Positions 5,105 to 40,747 of a stretch of DNA of 40,758 nucleotides are shown in pieces. A model generated the notes under the pieces. That model made no database searches. It was not told where the DNA came from and was given only the letters and a program-made list of their open reading frames with translations. Source of the stretch: an uncultured Candidatus Saccharibacteria bacterium (GTDB lineage: Bacteria > Patescibacteriota > Saccharimonadia > Saccharimonadales > CAZARM01); contig CAZARM010000001.1 of the NCBI GenBank assembly GCA_964487615.1, positions 98,226-138,983 on the forward strand, given 5' to 3'. Position numbers and translations under genes: made by a program. Positions within the stretch are counted from its first letter, which is position 1. Every line of letters begins with the position of its first letter.

Positions 5105-5120
5105 CTTGTGTTAGCCTGAC

Positions 5121-5675
5121 TTAGAATCCTTGACGCGAGGCCGTCACCACATGGTCATCGAGGAAAGTTACGGTTACTAGTTTGTCGCCCTCCCGATAGG
5201 TGCAGACCTCTTGCTTGCCGGCCGTCGTAGAGTTGACCAAAATAGCGCAGTTTTGATCTATGCCCTGGGCTTCGCCGCTGGTTTGCTCTTTAGTATCGCC
5301 ACGGTCAATGCCGGCCGCAAAGCTAATTAGGGCTGAGTGCGAACCCGATGGGGTCGTGTTGCCACCTCCTCCGCTGCCCCCACTGCCTCCGCCGCTATTA
5401 GAACCATTATGGCTTCCCGAGCTAGAGCCGCCAGAACCACCCGAGCCACTGCCGCTGCCAGATCCCGGCACTATGTCGCTAAGTTTTTTGGTTGTTGGGT
5501 AAAAGGCGCTGCCCAGGTCATCCCCATTGCCCCCAAAATCCCAACGTAGCCACTTGAGTCCAAAACCAAGCAGCAGGAAAAGTAAAATGAGTATTAGTAT
5601 CGCTAACAGTACATTTTCCATTTTAGTGCGCTGTTTTAGCTCTTTTTTTGAAGTTTTATTTGATGTTTTTGCCAT
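5121..5675 (-). CDS. Membrane-anchored protein with Gly/Ser linker and C-terminal BLIP/DUF3862-like small domain
   Basis: Basic N-terminus, one TM segment and a long GS linker. The C-terminal I.rG.Tk.q...C...C.Y...v.V.F.dd.Vv..s..Gf pattern is recognised by eye. Confidence 0.6.
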   Translation of the reverse strand: MAKTSNKTSKKELKQRTKMENVLLAILILILLFLLLGFGLKWLRWDFGGNGDDLGSAFYPTTKKLSDIVPGSGSGSGSGGSGGSSSGSHNGSNSGGGSGGSGGGGNTTPSGSHSALISFAAGIDRGDTKEQTSGEAQGIDQNCAILVNSTTAGKQEVCTYREGDKLVTVTFLDDHVVTASRQGF

Positions 5676-14694: not shown

Positions 14695-15163
14695 TAGTTG
14701 GTTCTTTCTTGACTCGGGGCTTGTTCTCGTCAGATTCTGGTAAGTGCTTTTTCAGCACCGTACCAAGGACCCCGTTGATAAACTTGGATGAATTATCACC
14801 TCCAAAGCCTTTGGCCAGTTCGACGGCTTCGTTGATGACAACTTTGGGTGGTGTGTCGTGCTCGTTTAATAGCTCGTAGGTGCCTATACGCAAAATGATG
14901 CGGTCTATACGCGCGATCTGGTCGATTGGCCATTCTGGCGCAATTGGTTGGAGGAGCTCGTCAATCTCTGTCTGCTTGAGTGTAATTTGATTTACTAGCC
15001 GCTCAATGAATGCCCGATCCTCCACCATGTCGCGGTAGCGGGCGATATTACGGGCTAAGACGTCTTTGAGTTTGAATGTCACATCATTGCAGTCACGACG
15101 AAAATCCTGTTCATACAGAGTCTGTAGAGCGATGATGCGGCCGAGGTGACGATTAGCACTCAT
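14681..15163 (-). CDS. nusB: Transcription antitermination factor NusB
   Basis: [31 protein letters not shown]...S.KFINGVLG pattern. Confidence 0.97.
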
Positions 15164-15253
15164 TGAGCTATCTCATAAGCTATATTGTTAAGTTAATCTT
15201 GTTTGCGGATGTTATTGGTATTAGGCACTGCCTATAGTATAACCTGAAAAAGC

Positions 15254-25706: not shown

Positions 25707-25783
25707 GGGGCATTGGCGCAGTTGGCTAGCGCGCTTCCATGGCATGGAAGAGGTCATCGGTTCGAATCCGATATGCTCCACCA
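25707..25783 (+). tRNA. tRNA-Ala(GGC)
   Basis: Cloverleaf GGGGCAT/ATGCTCC with G3:U70, anticodon stem CTTCC/GGAAG, TTCGAAT loop and encoded CCA. Confidence 0.97.
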
Positions 25784-31750: not shown

Positions 31751-31881
31751 GGGGTCCCCACGAAGAGAGGATTCTTCGTGGGGCTAAAGCGCAAGAATTG
31801 TTGGAAGTCGCAACTCTGATCTTTGGGAGTCCCCGCGGCAAGAGGATTTGCCGTGGGGTTAAACGCAGGAATTGTCGGAGG
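31751..31881. repeat. Tandem pair of REP-like palindromic units (75-nt period)
   Basis: CCCCACGAAGA-GAGGAT-TCTTCGTGGGG (31756-31783) and CCCCGCGGCAA-GAGGAT-TTGCCGTGGGG (31831-31858). Each is followed by TAAA(G)CGCA(A/G)GAATTGT(T/C)GGA. Confidence 0.8.
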
Positions 31882-31936
31882 CTGTAAGTAAAAACGACTT
31901 CCGTCGTTTTACGGAAGCCGTAGTGCAATTACAAGC

Positions 31937-32022
31937 TGGTGCGCGGGGCGGGAATCGAACCCGCACGCCTTTTGGGCACGTGATTTTAAGTCACGACTGT
32001 CTACCAGTTCCAGCACCCGCGC
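31937..32022 (-). tRNA. tRNA-Leu(TAA)
   Basis: GCGCGGG/CCCGCGC acceptor, CGTGA-CTTAAAA-TCACG, long variable arm, TTCGATT loop and CCA. Confidence 0.96.
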
Positions 32023-32442: not shown

Positions 32443-32536
32443 ACATCTCCATTCAGTTTCAATCAACTTCTATATTTTTACCACGTTGCCAGTCCGAATC
32501 ATAGAGCTGACGACAACAGGGGAAACTGATACAATG

Positions 32537-32663
32537 AGCCTGTCCAAAATTTTAAACCAATCCGCCACGAGCGGATGTTTGAAGTTTTGAGAGGAACAAC
32601 CTAGCCACAGGCCGAAGCTTTTGCCCCTCAGGCAAAACGAGGCAGCGGCGTCAGTTGTGACGA
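32537..32663 (+). ncRNA. Structured tRNA-leader element, copy A (before tRNA-Cys)
   Basis: Follows an extended -10 (TGaTACAAT, 32527-32535). Hairpin CAAAATTTTAAAC/GTTTGAAGTTTTG, then GAGGA, a second multi-stem domain, and GACGA abutting tRNA +1. Confidence 0.6.
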
Positions 32664-32737
32664 GGCGCGTTGGCCGAGAAGTTAGGCATGGGTCTGCAAA
32701 ACCCAGTAGACGGGAGCGTTACCCGTACGCGCCTCCA
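32664..32737 (+). tRNA. tRNA-Cys(GCA) with non-canonical T-loop
   Basis: GGCGCGT/ACGCGCC acceptor, U73, CCA, TGGGT-CTGCAAA-ACCCA, and T-arm ACGGG-AGCGTTA-CCCGT. Confidence 0.9.
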
Positions 32738-32793
32738 TTGCTTTGATCCTGCTTAATACCATAGCTATTGAGATTCCCCGTGAATTACGCTAT

Positions 32794-33489
32794 CTACTGT
32801 TTTTTGCTACTTGGAGTAATTGGACTATGGGACATTCTTTGGTTTCGAGCAGCTATTGCTCGCATTCCCAGAATCTCCTCAATCAATGATTCTTCACTGT
32901 CATATGCATCTTGCACAACTCGTCCCACGTCACTAAATACGCCCAGATAAGGAGCATACGTTGCGGCGCTCTCAGGACTAGTCGCAGTACTGTCAAAAAC
33001 TCGTTCTCTTAAAACCGCGAACGTTATTCCGATCTGGCACCCCACACTATAGAGTGGGCCATCCATCGCTCCATAAATAGTTACGACTCGATTTTTAGAT
33101 CCAAGGTTACCTATCGACGCAATCGTACGCTGTGAAGGGATGATGGCTTGCGGCCCAAGCTCGACTTCATCGTGTAACAAAACTCTAGGTCCAATAGTGG
33201 AACCAGCCTGTATGGTTCTTGCATTAGTTGATTTTGAATAAACTGGGTTCGGGCATACTTGCGCCTCATGCATGATGAATACATCTGCCTCAATGCCGAC
33301 GTCTGGGCCAATCCTAACTTTGTCTCCAATTATAGATCTAGGTCCAATATGAGTGTCCGGGCCTATTAATACGTCGTCACCAACTTGCACTCCATGCGCC
33401 ACGTCTACACCTCGTCCAATAATGCAATGGGAGCCAACCTCTGCTGTGTCAGCAATACGAAGATAGAATGAACTGTCAATAACTCGCAT
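32794..33489 (-). CDS. Left-handed beta-helix (hexapeptide repeat) protein
   Basis: [IV]G.... hexapeptide repeats. C-terminal IGNLGSKNRVVTIY...SVGCQ.G domain resembles phage-type hexapeptide proteins. Confidence 0.75.
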   Translation of the reverse strand: MRVIDSSFYLRIADTAEVGSHCIIGRGVDVAHGVQVGDDVLIGPDTHIGPRSIIGDKVRIGPDVGIEADVFIMHEAQVCPNPVYSKSTNARTIQAGSTIGPRVLLHDEVELGPQAIIPSQRTIASIGNLGSKNRVVTIYGAMDGPLYSVGCQIGITFAVLRERVFDSTATSPESAATYAPYLGVFSDVGRVVQDAYDSEESLIEEILGMRAIAARNQRMSHSPITPSSKKQ

Positions 33490-33568
33490 TATATTCCTTT
33501 TATACCATTTTCTGTTGGCTGTCTCCACTTTTGTTTATAATAATACGTCCTGCAACAATGATCCCTCA

Positions 33569-33598
33569 TTGCACCAACCCCCAAACTTAAGGTATAAT
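33569..33598 (+). promoter_or_regulatory. Sigma70-type promoter
   Basis: TTGCAC-18 nt-TATAAT upstream of element copy B and tRNA-Gly. Confidence 0.6.
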
Positions 33599-33617
33599 CC
33601 CCCTCTGTTACGCTATT

Positions 33618-33730
33618 GTTCTGGCCAATTTTGTGAGAGGATTCACAAAATTGAGAGGAGGAAGCGACTAGAGGTTGGAGCAAGGGCAAATACTTTTGCA
33701 CTTACGTAAGCCGACCGTCGATTCCGACGA
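33618..33730 (+). ncRNA. Structured tRNA-leader element, copy B (before pseudo-tRNA-Gly)
   Basis: Perfect CAATTTTGTGA-GAGGAT-TCACAAAATTG hairpin. Shares AAAATTGANAGGAGGAAGCGA, TGGAGCA, CGTAAGCCGACC and GACGA with copy C. Confidence 0.7.
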
Positions 33731-33870
33731 GCAGGTGTAGCTCAGTTGTAAGAGTGAGGAGTGCCAGTGGCACCCCGCAAGGAGACTTCTCAGATTTGCG
33801 ACTTGTCGTAAGTATGAAAATCTCGGGGTCGCGGAACGTGACCTTACTTGCCAGGCCAAGGAAGCACTTG
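33731..33870 (+). pseudogene. tRNA-Gly-derived RNA with 86-nt structured insertion, no T-arm and no CCA
   Basis: 33731-33756 is 22/26 identical to the 5' end of the tRNA-Gly at 33911. 33843-33864 resembles its anticodon arm. CAGGTG can pair with CACTTG at 33865-33870. Confidence 0.65.
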
Positions 33871-33910
33871 ATAGACTGACTGAACCTTCACAATAATAAT
33901 CGATAAATAT

Positions 33911-33986
33911 GCGGGTGTAGCTCAGTTGATAGAGCGCTTCCTTGCCAAGGAAGAGGCCACGAGTTTGAGTCTCGTCACCCGCACCA
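33911..33986 (+). tRNA. tRNA-Gly(GCC)
   Basis: GCGGGTG/CACCCGC acceptor, CTTCC-TTGCCAA-GGAAG, T-arm ACGAG-TTTGAGT-CTCGT and CCA. Confidence 0.95.
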
Positions 33987-34030
33987 ATTAGACCCAAACT
34001 ATTTTGAAACAGTATAGTTTCAAACATTTA

Positions 34031-34052
34031 GAGCCTTGATGAGGCTCTTTTT
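34031..34052 (+). terminator. Intrinsic terminator after tRNA-Gly
   Basis: GAGCCT-TGATG-AGGCTC followed by TTTTT. Confidence 0.75.
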
Positions 34053-34066
34053 GTTACTATTAGACA

Positions 34067-34702
34067 ATGAGTGAATTAACACCTGAAGAGAGATTGACTA
34101 TTGCTACTTATGACCGACAGGCTGAAAACTGGTCGTCAGGTCACGGTACTGCCAACTTTTGGGGTGAAGAGATGGTTCGCTTCAAAGAACTGCTCCGTGG
34201 TGGTCGGATATTAGAAATTGGGGCTGGCGGTGGTCGTGACGCAAAGGAGCTTATTGAGGCAGGTTTTGATTATCTCGGAACTGATATTTCGACAGGATTA
34301 TTGGAACAGGCACGTAAGAATAACCCTGGCATTAGTTTTGAAGAGGTTAGCGTGTATGACTTGGACTATGAAGAACTATTTGATGGCTTTTGGTGTTCGG
34401 CAGTATTACTGCATATACCACGAAACAGGATTGATGAGGCTCTGCAAGCCATCAATAAAAACATGAAGCAAGGTGCAATTGGCTTCATCGCAGTTAAAGA
34501 AGGCGAAGGCGAAAAGCTAGAAGCAGATGATAAAAGCACTCAAGGTGACGAACGCTTTTTTGTGTATTGGACTGACGAAAACTTTTCAAAGAGTCTTGGA
34601 GCTAATGGATTTAACATAGTAGAACGTGGTTATCGCCCGATGAGCGAGCGAACAAAATGGCTAACCTACATTGTAAAAGTAGGTGATAAAAAACTAGATT
34701 AG
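34067..34702 (+). CDS. Class I SAM-dependent methyltransferase
   Basis: ILEIGAGGGRD, GTDIS and FDGFWCSAVLLHIP motifs. Confidence 0.92.
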   Translation: MSELTPEERLTIATYDRQAENWSSGHGTANFWGEEMVRFKELLRGGRILEIGAGGGRDAKELIEAGFDYLGTDISTGLLEQARKNNPGISFEEVSVYDLDYEELFDGFWCSAVLLHIPRNRIDEALQAINKNMKQGAIGFIAVKEGEGEKLEADDKSTQGDERFFVYWTDENFSKSLGANGFNIVERGYRPMSERTKWLTYIVKVGDKKLD

Positions 34703-34815
34703 CTCGCTAGACAGGTTGAATAACTTCACAAGATTTAACAGCTTAGCGTCAGCCACACTATCAATTGCGGATGTTTGTAATACGTCAACTATGCTGCACC
34801 ATTTTTATGTAACCT

Positions 34816-34842
34816 AAAAATACCTCGAACAGAGGTATTTTT
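34816..34842. terminator. Bidirectional-type intrinsic terminator
   Basis: AAAAATACCTC-GAACA-GAGGTATTTTT. Confidence 0.7.
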
Positions 34843-34856
34843 GCTATTATGATGCT

Positions 34857-35246
34857 ATGAAAACTATTCCAGAAGTCGATAAGTACATTAGCTTGCTGCC
34901 TCAGTGGCAGCAGAGTATCTGCCGAAAGGTACGTGACCTAATTCATCAAGCTGATGCAGATATTGTCGAGGAGATTAAGTTTAAGAATCGCCCTTATTTT
35001 ACGATGCAGGGAAACGTTTGCGCTTTGCTAGCTGCTAAAGACCACGTGAATGTGTTTATCTACGACCCGATTGCGCCAGACCCCTCGGGTCTTATTAATC
35101 AAGGTCATGGAAATGCTACTGCACGCTCAATACAGCTATATGAAGACGATCCAGTAGATGAAAAAGCCTTTGTTGAATTAATTAAAGCTGTAGCCGAAAA
35201 CAACCGCAAGGGTGGTTGGCGAAAACTCAAGAAAAGTTGGTCCTAA
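34857..35246 (+). CDS. DUF1801 (YdhG-like) protein
   Basis: VDKYI..LP.WQQ.IC..VR.LIH.AD....E.IK....PYF pattern. Confidence 0.85.
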   Translation: MKTIPEVDKYISLLPQWQQSICRKVRDLIHQADADIVEEIKFKNRPYFTMQGNVCALLAAKDHVNVFIYDPIAPDPSGLINQGHGNATARSIQLYEDDPVDEKAFVELIKAVAENNRKGGWRKLKKSWS

Positions 35247-35319
35247 TTTCATTGATAATGTCAGCATTTATCGGCCCAACCCCACCCAACGACCCAGAGT
35301 AAACTTTTAGGCGGTTAAT

Positions 35320-35673
35320 TTACGTTTTATTCAGCAGTTTTATGGCGCTAAAACCGATTAATGCGAGAATTGCTCCGCAGAATGTGCCCACTGAACCAAA
35401 TATGAGAAACGGCAGGATCTTTGTATTCAAGGGATTGGCTCCGTTATAGCTAGAAATCATAAACACATACGCTAGTGCAAAGCCGTATACCCCACCATCA
35501 ATGAGGGCTGCTTTTCTTGATATACTTAATATTCCTATAGAAAAACTGACTATTGCCCAAGGAATAAGTACGAGCGCAGGGCCACCTACAAAACCCATAA
35601 GACTTCCTAGCACTAGTGCCCCCAGAACAGATTTTGGGCCAGCCGATAACCTCTTGTTAGTTAAAGTAAACAT
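35320..35673 (-). CDS. Small hypothetical membrane protein (about four TM)
   Basis: Hydrophobic ORF with TATAAT 6 nt upstream of the ATG. Confidence 0.65.
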   Translation of the reverse strand: MFTLTNKRLSAGPKSVLGALVLGSLMGFVGGPALVLIPWAIVSFSIGILSISRKAALIDGGVYGFALAYVFMISSYNGANPLNTKILPFLIFGSVGTFCGAILALIGFSAIKLLNKT

Positions 35674-35925
35674 ATCGCAATTATAACGCGGTTATTTAGC
35701 GTAACTGTACTGGGGCTGCTAGATAAAGTAATACCCTTAGGGCAATGTGAACTCCTAATCGTATTAATTGTCAGCCACTAGATAACTAGTAAGTTCGCTT
35801 ACAGTTTGACTAATAGTGTTACACCAAATGAACTTTATGCGACACTTCAGTGTCCTTTTATCTTTTATAGTAGGTTTTAGTAGACTAACTGTATACTGAA
35901 GCAATCAATTCAAGAGGAGACAGAC

Positions 35926-36117
35926 ATGGTTACAGGATACTGCGTTAAATGCAAAGAAAAAGGTGTTGAATTGTCAGCACCAGAGGTTGTCCAAACTAAA
36001 AAAGGTGGTTTCATGGCCAAAGGGAAGCATGAAAAATGCGGAACAACTGTCTGTGCAATGATGTCCAAAGACACTGCTGAAAAAGCAGTAGCAGACGGCG
36101 CAACAAAAGCCTACTAG
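35926..36117 (+). CDS. Small zinc-ribbon protein (DUF5679-like)
   Basis: GYCVKCK...KG.HEKCGT.V.....K pattern, SD GAGGAG, and a terminator after the stop. Confidence 0.8.
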   Translation: MVTGYCVKCKEKGVELSAPEVVQTKKGGFMAKGKHEKCGTTVCAMMSKDTAEKAVADGATKAY

Positions 36118-36130
36118 ACTGATCAATATG

Positions 36131-36160
36131 AAAATACCCCCCAAGTAGGGGGTATTTTTT
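36131..36160 (+). terminator. Intrinsic terminator
   Basis: AAAATACCCCC...GGGGGTATTTT inverted repeat followed by T-run. Confidence 0.8.
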
Positions 36161-36208
36161 GTTTGCTAAAATAGAAATGAAACTAATTCTTACCCGGGGG
36201 AATAATCT

Positions 36209-36631
36209 ATGGCAACCATCAATCCTTACATTAACTTCAACGGCAATGCTCAAGAAGCCTTTTATTTTTATAAATCTGTTTTTGGTGGCGAATTCGGGAA
36301 GATTGTACGCTTCAAAGATCTAGAAGGCCCGGAGTTTCCTGTACCAGCAAACGAAGCAAATAAAATTATGCGTATTACGTTGCCAATTGGTGGAAATACT
36401 TTGATAGCCAATGATGTCCCTGAGAGTATGGGTCCAGTGAGTGAAAATGAAAACAGGTCCAAAATAGCGGTGGTTGCGAAAACTAAAGAGGAAGCCGACA
36501 AGCTATTCAAAGGCCTTTCCGAGGGTGGCAAAGTGGAAATGCCTATGGCTCAGAGCCCTTGGGGTACCTATTTTGCTATGTTCAGAGATAAATTCGGTAT
36601 TGAGTGGACGGTAGAATTCGACCCGAACTAG
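36209..36631 (+). CDS. VOC protein, PhnB-like
   Basis: INPYINFNGNA.EAF.FY.SVFGG...PWG.YF.M.RDKFGIEW pattern. Confidence 0.92.
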   Translation: MATINPYINFNGNAQEAFYFYKSVFGGEFGKIVRFKDLEGPEFPVPANEANKIMRITLPIGGNTLIANDVPESMGPVSENENRSKIAVVAKTKEEADKLFKGLSEGGKVEMPMAQSPWGTYFAMFRDKFGIEWTVEFDPN

Positions 36632-36687
36632 ACAGAACCCACTTGGTCACTTCTGCTAACTTTCTGCTTATGCCATAATACTGTCCT

Positions 36688-37485
36688 ATGCAAGATATGA
36701 TTACGGCCAAAGGTTTGACCAAGAAATTCAAGGATTTCACTGCAGTCGATGGGATTGATTTTGCCGTTAAAAAGGGCGAGATCTTTGCCTTTCTGGGCCC
36801 CAATGGAGCAGGAAAAAGCACTACCATCAAGATGCTGACAACTTTGTCTGCTCCAACTAGTGGAGCGGTAACGCTTGCAGGTTTTGACGTTATCACTCAG
36901 AAGGCAGAGGTACGAAACTCTTTTGGCATTGTTTTCCAAGACCCTAGTGTTGACGATGAACTGACGGCACTGGAGAACATGATGCTGCACGCTACGTTCT
37001 ACGGGCTGCCGAAAGCTGAAGCACTAGCTAGATCCCAGGAACTGCTTGAGATGGTGGAGCTATGGGACAGGCAGGCTAGCCTAGTGAAGACTTTTTCTGG
37101 TGGCATGAAGCGGCGGCTGGAGATTGCCCGCGGCTTGTTGCACCACCCTAACGTATTGTTTTTGGATGAACCCACCATCGGGCTGGACGCCCAAACCCGC
37201 AATGTTCTGTGGCGCTACGTTTCTGGAATGAGCAAGACCGAGGGAATGACGATTTTCTTCACCACCCACTATCTGGAAGAGGCCGAGCAATATGCCGAAC
37301 GCATTGCCATAATTGATCATGGTCATATCATTGCCAGTGGCACCACCGCACAACTCAAGGATAAAACCGGTACCAAAACTTTAGAAGCCGCATATTTAAA
37401 ACTAACTGGCGACAGCACGCGTGATGAAGACAGTAGTGCTGACAGCGTCGCCCGTAACCGTGCGCGAATGAGAGGGCGAAGATAA
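36688..37485 (+). CDS. ABC exporter ATP-binding subunit (DrrA-like)
   Basis: GPNGAGKST, FSGGMKRR, LFLDEPT and TTHY motifs. Confidence 0.95.
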   Translation: MQDMITAKGLTKKFKDFTAVDGIDFAVKKGEIFAFLGPNGAGKSTTIKMLTTLSAPTSGAVTLAGFDVITQKAEVRNSFGIVFQDPSVDDELTALENMMLHATFYGLPKAEALARSQELLEMVELWDRQASLVKTFSGGMKRRLEIARGLLHHPNVLFLDEPTIGLDAQTRNVLWRYVSGMSKTEGMTIFFTTHYLEEAEQYAERIAIIDHGHIIASGTTAQLKDKTGTKTLEAAYLKLTGDSTRDEDSSADSVARNRARMRGRR

Positions 37486-38231
37486 TGCGAGTTGTATTTG
37501 CACTTTGGGCGCGACAGATTAAGCGCTACATCCGGGCACGTTCCCGCATTGTTGGCGCTATTGGCCAACCGTTGTTGCTGTTGCTGGCGCTTGGTTATGG
37601 ACTAGGCTCTGCCTTTCAGCAGGCTGGTCATGGTAACTACTTGGCATTTTTGGTGCCCGGCATCATGGCGCAAACGGTGCTGTTTACGGCAGTGTTCTAT
37701 GGTATCAACGTTCTGTTTGATAAGCAGTTCGGCTTTTTGAAGGAGACTCTGGTGGCCCCCGTTTCAAGATTTAAGATCATGGTTGGCGGAGCGTTGGGTG
37801 GAGCTACGACCTCACTCTTCCAGGGGGCACTGGTCTTTATTATCGCCTTGGCATTGGGTGTTCACCCATACAATTGGTTGATGCTGCCAGTTGCCGTGCT
37901 AGTAATGTTCATGTTGGCCTTAGCGCTCACCAGTTTTAGTAGCGGTATAGCATCAATTGTGAATGACATACCTGGCTTCCAGTCGATTAACCAGTTCTTG
38001 ATTTTCCCGTTGTTCTTTTTGTCAGGTGCGCTATATCCCATCAGCAGTGCCCCAAAAGCGTTGCAAGTAATCGCTAGTATCAATCCCATCAGCTATGCTG
38101 TTGATGCCCTGCGTATCTGCCTGTTGGGGGCGGGACATTACGGCTTGCTGCTCGACTTTGTGGTACTGACCATTACACTCATAGCCCTGGTTATCTTTGG
38201 CTCCTACCGATTCACCAAAATCGAGGCCTAA
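37485..38231 (+). CDS. ABC-2 type permease (DrrB-like)
   Basis: About six TM segments, Y..FLVPG, G.LKE.LVAP, PLFFLSGALYP and NP.SYAVD motifs. Confidence 0.93.
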   Translation: MRVVFALWARQIKRYIRARSRIVGAIGQPLLLLLALGYGLGSAFQQAGHGNYLAFLVPGIMAQTVLFTAVFYGINVLFDKQFGFLKETLVAPVSRFKIMVGGALGGATTSLFQGALVFIIALALGVHPYNWLMLPVAVLVMFMLALALTSFSSGIASIVNDIPGFQSINQFLIFPLFFLSGALYPISSAPKALQVIASINPISYAVDALRICLLGAGHYGLLLDFVVLTITLIALVIFGSYRFTKIEA

Positions 38232-38265
38232 ACTAAAGTTTGCGTGGATTTGATACGATATAAGT

Positions 38266-38877
38266 ATGAGAAAAATAGTCGTTTTATCATTTATTACTTT
38301 AGATGGCGTTATGCAAGCACCAGGCGGACCTGACGAAGATACCTCATCAGGTTTTAAGTTTGGCGGCTGGCAAGCGCCGTATATTGCTGATGAGGCAATG
38401 CGGGAGATGACCAAGCAGCTCAGTATGCCGTTTGATTTGCTGTTGGGTAAAAAGACTTATGATATCTTTGCGGGGTATTGGCCAAAGCATCCAGAAATTG
38501 AAGTTGTAGCCGGTCCGTTTAACAAATGCACAAAATACGTTGTGTCGCACAAAAACATAGATCTGCCTTGGAAAGGTTCAGAATTAATTACCGGTGATGT
38601 GGTCGCCAAACTAAAGGAACTCAAGGCGTCGGATGGGCCAATGCTGCAAGTACATGGCAGTGGTAACCTGGTTCAAACCTTGCTGAAGGAAGACCTGGTT
38701 GACGAGCTGTGGCTAAAGATTCATCCGCTTACCTTAGGCAGTGGCAAGAAATTGTTTGAAGAAGGCACTATACCCGCAGCGTTTGAATTGATGGAACACA
38801 GCGTTACCTCTGATGGGGTGATATTTGCAAACTATAAACGTGCCGGAGAAGTCAAAACAGGAACAGTAGGGGAATAG
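38266..38877 (+). CDS. Dihydrofolate reductase-like / RibD C-terminal domain protein
   Basis: ITLDGVMQAPGG, LLLGKKTY, GSGNLVQ.L...DLVDEL...P..LG.GK.LF pattern. Confidence 0.9.
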   Translation: MRKIVVLSFITLDGVMQAPGGPDEDTSSGFKFGGWQAPYIADEAMREMTKQLSMPFDLLLGKKTYDIFAGYWPKHPEIEVVAGPFNKCTKYVVSHKNIDLPWKGSELITGDVVAKLKELKASDGPMLQVHGSGNLVQTLLKEDLVDELWLKIHPLTLGSGKKLFEEGTIPAAFELMEHSVTSDGVIFANYKRAGEVKTGTVGE

Positions 38878-38898
38878 ATATGGATAGCATTTCCTAAG

Positions 38899-39258
38899 AT
38901 GGAAGATCAAAAACCTCGGCTTTATACAATGAGCTTTACCAGGGTCTACCCTCTTTATATCGCTAAGGTAGAAAGAAAAGGGCGCACCAAAGCGGAAGTC
39001 GATGAAATCATTCATTGGATGACAGGGTATAGCCAGGCCGGCCTCCAGGCACAACTGGAAAAACAAACTGATCTTGAGACGTTCTTTGCGGAGGCTCCTA
39101 AGCTCAACCCTTCCCGTACTTTGATCAAAGGCATGATTTGTGGAATCCGAGTCGAAGATATCAAAGAACCAACCATGCAGGAAATCCGCTACCTGGATAA
39201 GCTAATCGACGAGTTAGCCAAAGGCAAAACCATGGATAAAATCCTGCGCGTAAAATGA
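38899..39258 (+). CDS. DUF2200 family protein
   Basis: M.F..VYPLY.AK.ERKGRTK.EVD...ICG.RVE.I....[16 protein letters not shown] pattern. Confidence 0.92.
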
Positions 39259-39399
39259 CAAGCTATTCCGTCGATGCATCGATTAATTCATAGCCACTTC
39301 TGCAGAAGAAGGCTAGCCTCACCTACCCCCAGCCTCCTTGAGGGAGACGATATTGTTAGTTTCTGATATTATTAGATCAATATTTTAAAACTAAACGAT

Positions 39400-40491
39400 A
39401 TGAGAAACACACATATGAAACGGAACAAATTATTCAGTCGTGCAATTACTTGTTTAATACTTCTTGGCTCAAGCTTATTGGCTTCGAGCTCAGTCTCCGC
39501 TGGTACAACCAGCTACACGTTTAACGCAAACTGGACGGAGTCAACGTGTACCGGCACCATAAACGGTAGTACGGGCATAATCAGCTACCATGTAACACAG
39601 GGTGAAACGGTAAACACCAAACTAGTTAACCAATCTACGTCAGATCTTAACGTTGTGTACGCTAAATCAGGCGGAGACGGTAGCTTTTATAAGTTCGTAA
39701 AGGCCGGTGCCAGTGATAGCGAAAGCTTCACCAACGTCCAGGGTAATATTAGCGTCACTCCATCAGCGAACGGCTCTGGTTGTGGTACACCCGGCTATCA
39801 GTATTCTGGGCCTGGTCCGGCCAGTGCATCTATTACTGCTGACCCGCCGGCAACGACCACAACACCGGCAACCCCTAAAAGCACATCTTCGTCTACGACC
39901 AAGACGACCACACCAGCAACTACACCCGCGCCAGGCAGTGATTCGTCAGCCTCGACTGCCGCCAACCCCGTACAATTAACGTCGGTTTTAGTGGCGGGTA
40001 ACCAGGTGCCTCTGGATAGCCCTATTGAGTTAAGCCAGTCCCAAGAATTGGGACTGGCTGGCCACACTACGGCAAACGGTGTAGTCAACCTTACCATCCA
40101 CTCAACACCACAGACTGACACAACTACGGCCAACGCAAACGGTGACTGGAGCTATACGGTCAACGGCTTAGAGCCAGGGGAACATTATATTGAGGCCAGT
40201 GTCACCGACCCGACTACTAAGCAGACTTCGGCAACTGCCACATTGGTTTCGTTTACCGTAAACTCTCAGCCTGCAGCAGCAACACCAGCAAATAAGAATA
40301 ATAGATCCCTCGTTGGTTTACTGATATTGGCGTTGCTAGTGGCGGCAATCGTAGCATTAATATTAGCAAAAAAGGGACGGCTCTGGCCCGCGAGGAATAA
40401 GAAGTTAAGCACTAAATCTAACGATATTGATGCTATCGAGGATAATGCACTGTCAGCAGAGCTAAGTAACGACGAATCTGAGGACAAATAG
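39400..40491 (+). CDS. Cell-surface protein: signal peptide, beta domain, Thr/Pro linker, Ig-like domain, C-terminal TM anchor
   Basis: L.G.T.....V..TIHS.P....T.ANANGDWSY....LEPG.H is an Ig-like pattern. Hydrophobic tail followed by KKGR. Confidence 0.8.
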   Translation: MRNTHMKRNKLFSRAITCLILLGSSLLASSSVSAGTTSYTFNANWTESTCTGTINGSTGIISYHVTQGETVNTKLVNQSTSDLNVVYAKSGGDGSFYKFVKAGASDSESFTNVQGNISVTPSANGSGCGTPGYQYSGPGPASASITADPPATTTTPATPKSTSSSTTKTTTPATTPAPGSDSSASTAANPVQLTSVLVAGNQVPLDSPIELSQSQELGLAGHTTANGVVNLTIHSTPQTDTTTANANGDWSYTVNGLEPGEHYIEASVTDPTTKQTSATATLVSFTVNSQPAAATPANKNNRSLVGLLILALLVAAIVALILAKKGRLWPARNKKLSTKSNDIDAIEDNALSAELSNDESEDK

Positions 40492-40552
40492 ACTCAATAC
40501 CTGCAAGCTTCGGGACAGTAGCATAATTTTGTGGTTTACCGTAGAATATCAG

Positions 40553-40671
40553 GGTCTTGTCCAATATTCTGAACCAAGGAACTGTTTAGAAAATTGATAG
40601 GAGGAAGCGATCAGAAAATGGAGCAGAAGAAACATTATTCTTCTGCGTAAGCCGACCATCATTTCTGACGA
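40553..40671 (+). ncRNA. Structured tRNA-leader element, copy C (before tRNA-Phe)
   Basis: Follows TAGAAT (40542-40547). Hairpin CAATATTCTGAAC/GTTTAGAAAATTG, stem GCAGAAGAA/TTCTTCTGC, and GACGA abutting tRNA +1. Confidence 0.7.
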
Positions 40672-40747
40672 GGCTCTTTAGCTCAGTTGGTAGAGCAGAG
40701 GCTTGAAGAGCCTTGTGTCCCCAGTTCGAGTCTGGGAGGAGCCACCA
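40672..40747 (+). tRNA. tRNA-Phe(GAA)
   Basis: GGCTCTT/AGGAGCC acceptor, GAGGC-TTGAAGA-GCCTT, TTCGAGT loop and CCA. Confidence 0.97.

Follow-up and report, generated by a model that had tools for sequence, protein, structure and literature searches.

The window analyzed here, the whole 40,758-nucleotide (nt) stretch at positions 98,226 to 138,983 of contig CAZARM010000001.1 from an uncultured Candidatus Saccharibacteria bacterium (assembly GCA_964487615.1), carries three copies (A, B, and C) of a structured RNA leader, two of them joined directly to base 1 of a transfer RNA (tRNA) and the third to an orphaned tRNA fragment. The leader belongs to an RNA family of ~110 to 130 nt that is uncatalogued in Rfam 15, and it folds into a hairpin (P1), a purine junction (A.AGGA), the nested helices P2 to P4, and a tail of the form GACGN. 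A preliminary description of the window had offered three options for its role, namely, (a) a cis element or ribozyme involved in tRNA 5' maturation, (b) a stable RNA released by ribonuclease P (RNase P), or (c) a nonautonomous mobile element. It is possible, if short of probable, that the element is an RNA module that is autonomous and owes its 3' end to RNase P cleavage at the adjoining tRNA-shaped RNA, and this is the reading that we favor below.

R1, a covariance model built from the RNAalifold alignment of eight type 1 copies from the source genome, matches the element at all three places where the preliminary description had put it, with GACGA standing right before base 1 of tRNA-Cys and tRNA-Phe and before position 33731. 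The strings given there as common to copies B and C are all present, as are three apical stems that differ in sequence yet remain paired. Aligned with one another, the three copies have a mean column identity of 68%. The -10 boxes said to precede them fared unevenly: that of copy A (TACAAT) is supported by a promoter scan, and those of copies B and C were read by eye and fall short of the scan's -35 criterion. The copies and their immediate neighbors are as follows.

32530 to 32535, + strand: -10 box of copy A, TACAAT, with a -35-like CTGACG at 32507 (promoter scan)
32541 to 32663, + strand: leader copy A, divergent, with a long P1 containing an inner hairpin and with tail GACGA (R1, 31.3 bits)
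32664 to 32737, + strand: tRNA-Cys(GCA), whose base 1 adjoins copy A (ARAGORN)
33593 to 33598, + strand: -10 box of copy B, TATAAT, followed by a CCCC(T)CTGTT motif (reading; unflagged by the scan)
33622 to 33730, + strand: leader copy B, type 1, a member of seed alignment A3 (R1, 102.6 bits)
40542 to 40547, + strand: -10 box of copy C, TAGAAT (reading; unflagged by the scan)
40558 to 40671, + strand: leader copy C, type 1 (R1, 107.8 bits)
40672 to 40747, + strand: tRNA-Phe(GAA), adjoining copy C (ARAGORN, Rfam)

Three copies, the number first given, greatly understates the family. When the 150 nt in front of each of the 35 tRNAs of the source genome (G000; 795,867 bp in 29 contigs, 48% G+C, 97.4% complete) were read, a dozen further tRNAs proved to have the same kind of leader; a profile hidden Markov model of 12 copies matched 15 places at an E value of <1e-5, and R1 matched 16 places at E ≤ 1. 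Twelve of these 16 abut tRNAs (Cys, Phe, two Met, Arg-GCG, Arg-CCG, Gln-TTG, Lys-TTT, Lys-CTT, Gly-TCC, Val-GAC, and Pro-TGG); the other four are copy B, an "orphan" between tilS and ftsH, one copy antisense to tRNA-Arg-TCT, and a diverged copy on contig 19. One more copy is interrupted by a contig end. About 22 of the 35 tRNAs have no leader, and the transfer-messenger RNA (tmRNA) of this genome has an ordinary short one. At tRNA-Glu-CTC (contig 5, ~40569 to 40598), a 30-nt leader keeps only the last ~10 bases of the tail (GGTCTGACGA); it is likely a deletion remnant. Relative L016 has a full leader there.

Beyond the source genome, every wide search used R1, with which members having long P3 and P4 ("type 2") score only 24 to 42 bits, and the large searches were run with strict filters; the family counts are therefore lower bounds. 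R1 hits were found in 27 of the 41 nearest genomes (E ≤ 0.01) and, at E ≤ 0.001, in 77 of 151 genomes of the same order, where they span 66 of 121 genera with up to 13 copies. A sample of the phylum gave hits in 13 of 151 genomes at the same threshold, 11 of them outside the order (of ~144 sampled elsewhere). Among these is G286 with 13 to 14 copies, in whose own order 14 of 26 genomes have hits (E ≤ 0.001). The distribution is patchy, with 1 to 16 copies per genome. Of 86 leaders, 7 have their nearest relative next to the same anticodon and 23 have it in the same genome. Paralogues within one genome are old, and they differ by many compensatory changes instead of being near identical. As a control for specificity, R1 found no match in 160 unrelated loci (1.25 Mb; 80 genome and 80 viral loci, among the matches listed) picked up through a chance 15-mer in common with the element. 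In the literature covered by our search, with subscription journals outside that coverage, we found no account of a tRNA leader like this one.

The fold was first derived without model fitting, from RNAalifold run on a plain MAFFT alignment of the eight type 1 paralogues, which gave 37 pairs arranged as a long P1 followed by nested P2, P3, P3a, and P4; changes on both sides preserve 19 of these pairs. Structural statistics were then taken from 109 copies aligned to R1, a fitting that favors the model. In this alignment, standard pairs make up 93.8% of 3,558 pair cells, compared to 65.5% after shuffling, a level reached by none of 500 shuffles, and compensatory changes occur at all 36 model pairs. 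The covariation score is 0.637, against 0.189 when shuffled and at most 0.119 when pairing partners are slid by 1 to 3 columns, and a set of 41 sequences gave the same structural picture. The view taken in the preliminary description, of a real structured RNA family linked to tRNA 5' ends, is supported. Conservation reaches 90% at ten positions only: a single U on the 3' side of P1, the A.AGGA of the junction, and the GACG of the tail. Of 108 copies, 101 pair the first G of the junction GGA with the C of the tail GAC as G-C, 3 as G-U, and 1 as C-G, with 3 other combinations. From the motif, the remaining GA/GA would make two G.A pairs. Because GGA...GAC extends the base of P2 in this way, P2 reaches within two bases of the downstream RNA. 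P3 and P4 vary widely in length and sequence.

The preliminary description could not place the element in a named family, and neither could Rfam 15: a scan of the window at gathering thresholds returned tRNAs only, E-value scans of the three copies yielded nothing beyond chance matches to microRNAs (E of 6.7 and 9.7), and scans of 18 other loci matched only the tRNA or tmRNA neighbors.

The placement of the element was read in 122 pooled copies, drawn from a first set of 42, then from all 51 hits of five genomes (unselected), and then from 19 hits in another order. In 75 copies the leader ends 0 to 5 nt before base 1 of a tRNA on the same strand; 19 run toward a tRNA gene on the opposite strand, and 28 fall elsewhere (3 tmRNAs, 3 tRNAs missed for technical reasons, ~6 tRNA 5' fragments, 2 antisense 3' fragments, 6 protein genes, and ~7 unassigned). 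In the first set, 32 of 42 end exactly at base 1 of a tRNA called by ARAGORN and one is antisense; of the nine without a call, two are tmRNAs by ARAGORN and one is a tRNA at a contig end. The five-genome set has 33 of 51 copies within 0 to 3 nt of a sense tRNA, 6 antisense, and 12 without a call, two of which are tRNAs by reading (one a model overshoot, the other at a contig end), and the 19 hits from another order divide into 6 sense, 7 antisense, and 6 without a call. In one sense case of the five-genome set, a tRNA-His, the leader stops before the encoded G-1, which is where RNase P cuts that tRNA. The tmRNA directly follows the leader in L032, L038, and L068, and some tRNA junctions have 1 to 3 extra bases. 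The tail, previously given as an invariant GACGA, is GACGN in 110 of 122 copies, where N is A in 80, U in 21, C in 21, and never G. In the first 42 copies, this last base, N(-1), neither covaries with the discriminator base of the tRNA nor has any pairing pattern with it.

Two of the less regular placements lie within the window, to the left of copy A and to the right of copy B.

31826 to 31936 (approximate), + strand: diverged leader relative, with tail ACAAGC in place of GACGA (alignment)
31937 to 32022, - strand: tRNA-Leu(TAA) (ARAGORN)
33731 to 33754, + strand: orphaned tRNA-Gly(GCC) 5' fragment, "pseudo-Gly" (sequence; no tRNA called)
33755 to 33910, + strand: insert between pseudo-Gly and the intact tRNA-Gly (no Rfam match)
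33911 to 33986, + strand: intact tRNA-Gly(GCC), with its own short leader (ARAGORN, Rfam)

The Leu tRNA, listed earlier among those lacking the element, in fact has a diverged copy (31826 to 31936) running into its CCA end from the opposite strand. This copy is not among the R1 hits of the source genome at E ≤ 1; aligned with the model hit at C19:4997-5106 and two type 1 leaders, the set has a mean column identity of 68%. Its apical hairpin scores as terminator-like on the - strand, directly after tRNA-Leu, in the promoter and terminator scan. The 19 antisense copies of the pooled set all run toward the CCA end of the opposing tRNA gene, and by reading their junctions are GACG-TGG in 11, GACGN-TGG in 4, and GACGN plus two bases plus TGG in 3; the remaining one faces a tRNA gene without an encoded CCA. 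The fold of the leader strand is more stable than that of its reverse complement in 17 of 19 antisense and 72 of 75 sense copies, and in helices taken from the fitted alignment, G-U cells outnumber A-C cells by 30:4 in antisense and 100:32 in sense contexts. The RNA strand in antisense contexts thus still seems to be the leader strand.

At copy B, the leader is followed by pseudo-Gly, whose first 18 bases match those of the intact tRNA-Gly (33911 to 33928) at 17 positions, then by the insert, which holds a promoter-like TTGATA-18-AATAAT at 33868 to 33897 (promoter scan), and then by the intact tRNA. This layout of leader, tRNA 5' fragment, insert of 110 to 190 nt, and intact tRNA of the same kind recurs in L031, L043, L036, L137, and L127, at tRNA-Ser, tRNA-Lys, and others in unrelated genomes, and its mirror image is found at CCA ends on contig 19 of G000 (5107 to 5290) and in L082. 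In another genome (L033), tRNA-Gly-GCC directly carries a leader, which fits an ancestral leader-tRNA-Gly junction at copy B. Leaders linked to fragments still score high with R1, copy B among them. The fragments and inserts could have been left behind when small insertions into tRNA genes, in the manner of integrating elements, supplied a replacement end and, in the window, a promoter as well. Some inserts have common short motifs (CCCCGCAAGG and TCGGGGTCG). Starting at +2 after the orphan that lies between tilS and ftsH, 77 nt fold into a four-way junction resembling a cloverleaf (z = -3.55), a fold that fits an autonomous module. This junction lies on contig 12 of G000 at 15096 to 15174, - strand (797 to 875 of L003), has no tRNA sequence signatures, and shares its sequence in part with the final codons of tilS, which is encoded on the opposite strand.

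If the element is an RNA module delimited by RNase P, it would usually be transcribed from a sigma-70-type promoter of its own, 10 to 30 nt upstream; a -10-like box precedes 43 of the 75 sense-context copies, against 19.6 expected. The RNA would then fold into the long hairpin P1, the purine junction, and nested P2 to P4, with the base of P2 lengthened by the near-invariant GGA...GAC (one G-C and two G.A pairs), so that two bases, a G and then an N that is never G, would be left unpaired ahead of the next RNA. That next RNA would nearly always be tRNA-shaped, whether a tRNA, a tRNA-His with its G-1, a tmRNA, or the mirror of a tRNA gene, and the RNase P encoded by the genome would cut at the boundary. 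The cut would yield both the mature 5' end of the tRNA or tmRNA and a discrete, structured leader RNA with its 3' end against a helix. The tRNA-shaped neighbor, as a processing signal, would be of no less use to the leader than the leader is to the tRNA. Once freed, a leader stable enough to persist would most likely act in trans, by binding a protein or another RNA through its conserved junction. Both components of the enzyme, named earlier as something to look for, are encoded in the source genome (RNase P RNA, RF00010, 246 bits; rnpA, PF00825, 60 bits), and RNase P cuts tRNA and tmRNA precursors exactly where the leader ends. Release by RNase P, option (b) of the preliminary description, is therefore the simplest reading. 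We favor an RNA that is autonomous because the structure is kept at a mirror tRNA, at a dead fragment, and at a protein gene, and because leaders are not grouped by tRNA identity.

Several observations weigh against this proposal. The bacterial RNase P protein, as known from other bacteria, prefers a single-stranded leader; with only two unpaired bases here, cleavage could be slow or need unfolding. At mirror tRNAs, the RNase P site would lie 3 to 6 nt beyond GACG and not directly after GACGN, 7 of 19 antisense copies have a -10 box where 4.7 are expected, which is no enrichment, one antisense copy (L124) sits between two tRNA genes of the other strand, and in G110 two leaders stand back to back with no room for a promoter. 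The argument that G-U pairs mark a + strand RNA, made in the preliminary description, is of moderate strength: the model-aligned ratios support it, but plain minimum-free-energy folds give similar G-U counts on the two strands (165 versus 146). Downstream of another orphan, L044, which does not fit an autonomous module, the fold is no better than that of shuffled sequence (z = +0.69). Six copies precede protein genes and have no obvious RNase P site there. In G286, one leader separates nusB from rnc and another separates infA from rpmJ; at these two genes and at rpmA, the start codon lies at +1 or +2 after the tail, and these junctions are left unexplained by cleavage with RNase P. The three leaders are not recent copies of one another, since they differ by compensatory changes. 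A xerC-like gene of G286 starts at +18 after the tail, and in G083 and G110 the leader is followed by a GGAGG, a spacer, and then an Hsp20-like gene to which that GGAGG belongs. Pairing of leaders with the RNase P RNA of the source genome was dropped as an idea: predicted duplexes with the window copies A, B, and C had energies within about one standard deviation of those of shuffled sequences. The G110 cluster (contig 2, 132159 to 132675; L052 and L106) comprises a leader reading into tRNA-Gly-TCC, an antisense leader reading into the same tRNA from the other side, and a third leader before tRNA-Arg, with the 5' ends of two leaders overlapping by 3 nt.

The element might instead be a leader acting only in cis, its structure near the cut tuning maturation by RNase P or protecting or chaperoning the precursor, and with no life after the cut. 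Such a role would suit the position of the best-conserved bases at the junction with the downstream RNA, a helix that stops 2 nt from the cut, and the 75 of 122 copies on functional tRNAs plus 3 on tmRNA. It would have a precedent in a designed leader that controls RNase P cleavage by hiding or exposing a single-stranded 5' leader (PMC7897497). We consider it unlikely, given that 19 of 122 copies face antisense tRNA genes, ~8 stand at orphaned fragments, and 6 precede protein genes, with structure and strand asymmetry kept in these copies; that N(-1) does not covary with the discriminator base; that only 7 of 86 leaders have their nearest relative at the same anticodon; and that ~22 of 35 source-genome tRNAs manage without a leader. 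Service in cis to the tRNA, as in option (a), is a poor fit to these contexts. The cut could also be specified by the junction itself at the element's own 3' boundary, through a new ribozyme or a dedicated nuclease, so that whatever lies downstream receives an exact 5' end. This would make sense of a tail that abuts base 1 of tRNAs (G-1 for tRNA-His), base 1 of tmRNA, and the three G286 start codons alike, of conservation of at least 90% confined to the junction around the presumed cut, and of an N(-1) that is never G in 122 copies. Use of Shine-Dalgarno sequences is low in the source genome (GGAGG upstream of 16 of 467 long open reading frames), making leaderless starts plausible. Yet RNase P is present and would make such cuts at tRNAs redundant, and no self-cleaving class is known that cuts its own 3' end unless it also pairs with sequence downstream. 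The ribozyme models of Rfam give no match and the hammerhead core is lacking, the Hsp20-like and xerC-like contexts have spacers of 16 to 18 nt, some tRNA junctions have 1 to 3 extra bases, and the precise abutment to CCA ends in antisense is given no reason. Theta ribozymes, which trim the other end of tRNAs (PMC10879173), lend the idea some precedent. We regard a junction-specified cut as decidedly unlikely, and what keeps it alive is that tails adjoin start codons and that conservation is restricted to the site of the cut. The stronger claim of a new RNA class that sets its own 3' cut without downstream sequence, and that works as a portable 5'-end cassette for tRNAs, tmRNA, and leaderless mRNAs (rpmA, rpmJ, and rnc in one lineage), is improbable. 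Such an RNA, whether it cleaved itself or was the part that a dedicated nuclease recognizes, would be a functional mirror of HDV-like and hatchet ribozymes.

Option (c), a selfish or mobile DNA element that inserts by the ends of tRNA genes in either orientation, with hairpins required as single-stranded DNA or for mobilization, finds little support and is in our view quite improbable. The patchy distribution with copy numbers of 1 to 16, the same GACG end facing either end of tRNA genes, the absence of grouping by tRNA identity, the rearranged loci implied by tRNA fragments beside leaders, and two RAYT-like Y1 transposase genes in the source genome are in its favor. The paralogues, however, differ by many compensatory changes, the strand-asymmetric G-U:A-C ratios (100:32 and 30:4) point to RNA, and neither a target duplication nor a conserved 5' flank was seen. 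Y1 genes are distributed without regard to the element (present in 9 of 27 genomes that have it and in 4 of 14 that lack it), those of the source genome are not flanked by it (intergenic flanks of ≤75 nt without an R1 hit), and a gapped type 1 pattern that recovers 23 family loci found no contig in a viral collection. No reverse transcriptase (PF00078) was found in the source genome, which also counts against a retroelement-borne RNA. The two Y1 (HUH) genes, of 204 and 222 amino acids, lie on contig 8 (19286 to 19900, + strand) and contig 18 (7732 to 8400, - strand) of G000, and Y1 genes occur in 13 of the 41 related genomes, with up to 9 per genome. Mimicry of a Shine-Dalgarno sequence is highly improbable. 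In such a case, the GAGAGGAGG-like junction would pair with the 3' end of 16S rRNA and either place a start codon, with P2 to P4 bridging the distance to AUG, or titrate 30S subunits; the junction is indeed Shine-Dalgarno-like, and folding of P2 to P4 would leave ~6 nt to AUG in the three G286 mRNA contexts. But most copies precede noncoding RNAs, by prediction the junction GGA is taken up in pairing with the tail, many copies have GGAAGAA and not GGAGG, the source genome makes little use of Shine-Dalgarno sequences, and the Hsp20-like mRNAs have their own downstream of the leader. The 16S rRNA is not in the assembly, and a search of it for the 16S-end motif was also empty.

Among known systems, release by RNase P resembles MALAT1 and MEN-beta with mascRNA, in which RNase P makes the 3' end of a noncoding RNA (ncRNA) at a downstream tRNA-like structure. 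In both, a structured ncRNA lies upstream of a tRNA-shaped RNA, the boundary is an RNase P site, and the tRNA-shaped part may be a mimic, represented here by antisense tRNAs and the cloverleaf after the orphan. A tRNA or tRNA-like sequence lies at the 3' boundary of 75 sense, 19 mirror, and 3 tmRNA copies of the 122, and RNase P is encoded in the organism; the 6 mRNA contexts and ~6 unassigned ones have no such boundary. The leader differs in being bacterial, short, and multicopy, in having a partner that is mostly a real and needed tRNA or tmRNA, and in lacking a triple-helix 3' end, and its cleavage is a prediction. The 3' external transcribed spacer of glyW-cysT-leuZ in Escherichia coli is likewise a regulatory RNA cut from a tRNA precursor, that is, a by-product of tRNA maturation with a function of its own, as we propose for the leader. 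Spacers of this type are single, short, and weakly structured and act by base pairing, whereas the leader is 5', has an elaborate conserved fold, serves many tRNAs, and is order-wide. Short multicopy intergenic repeats such as REP/REPIN with RAYT (Y1) and hairpins derived from IS200/IS605 share with the leader their size, copy number, and hairpins, and Y1-like genes are present in the source genome; the leader copies, unlike these repeats, have diverged with compensation, comprise several domains and conserved unpaired purines, and are joined precisely to tRNAs. An element of the REP/REPIN or IS200/IS605 kind was set aside, as there is no association with Y1 genes across the 41 genomes and the Y1 genes are unflanked.

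Theta (HDV-like) ribozymes, which occur next to phage tRNAs, are a further case of a structured RNA fused precisely to one tRNA end and linked to maturation; they are located 3' of the tRNA and cleave at the 5' boundary of the ribozyme itself, whereas the leader lies 5' and would cut its own 3' end (PMC10879173). An HDV-like or theta ribozyme was accordingly rejected for the element, with no Rfam hit and a position that is either 5' of the tRNA or, for copies on the opposite strand, next to the CCA end. The designed RNase P riboswitch makes the point that 5' leader structure near the cut can gate RNase P, and it is synthetic and ligand dependent where the leader is natural (PMC7897497). A hammerhead ribozyme was considered by reading, and the GA-stem-GA is like stem II; equivalents of C3/U4 and the GAAA are lacking, there is no Rfam hit, and stem I is ruled out because the sequence after the cut varies freely. 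A T-box leader has no Rfam hit here and the downstream genes are tRNAs, and for a GGA decoy of the CsrB/RsmZ type, CsrA (PF02599) was not found in the 97.4% complete source genome.

We class the element as a candidate tRNA-punctuated ncRNA, and the chance that it is something more unusual is real. The 5' leaders of tRNAs are normally regarded as short, throwaway sequence. Here, in a genome of 0.8 Mb, up to one tRNA gene in three is preceded by a large, strongly conserved fold, which is found order-wide and extends to other lineages of the phylum. As reduced genomes shed nearly everything dispensable, the ~1.8 kb of conserved leader implies a real function. Release by RNase P would make the family a bacterial counterpart of tRNA-punctuated ncRNAs and a candidate abundant small RNA, in a group for which a transcriptome preprint on Saccharibacteria notes no validated small RNAs (10.1101/2022.03.25.485537). 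Self-directed removal would make it a processing RNA of a new type, of use as a tool. In both cases, the family is clearly delimited, open to testing, and already described by a covariance model.

Some smaller features of the window and its genome complete the picture. The motif after the -10 box of copy B, CCCC(T)CTGTT, recurs at other tRNA promoters of the source genome. With or without a leader, these promoters have TATAAT, 2 to 4 bases, and then a CCCCTGTT-like motif (e.g., ggtataatctcccctgtt), seen in the window at 33593 to 33609; this motif may be a lineage-specific discriminator or start-site element. Five tRNAs were called in the window by ARAGORN (Ala, Leu-TAA, Cys, Gly-GCC, and Phe), and the remaining features are the following.

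25707 to 25783, + strand: tRNA-Ala (ARAGORN)
31751 to 31825, + strand: partial upstream unit, comprising the hairpin GGGGTCCCC...AGAGAGGATTC...GGGG and the start of a second domain (reading only)

The partial unit looks like a truncated tandem copy of the leader. Its hairpin, GGGGTCCCC-N4-AGAGAGGATTC-N4-GGGG, occurs three times in the source genome, at 31751 to 31783 of the window, near 48852 of contig 6, and near 13221 of contig 14 (- strand), and its GGGG(T/C)CCCC start also serves as P1 in leaders outside this lineage, namely, in L067, in L068, and in those copies of G286 that are linked to mRNAs. Elsewhere in the source genome, ARAGORN reports a tRNA with a two-base anticodon, its identity undetermined, at 72705 to 72776 of contig 1 on the - strand.

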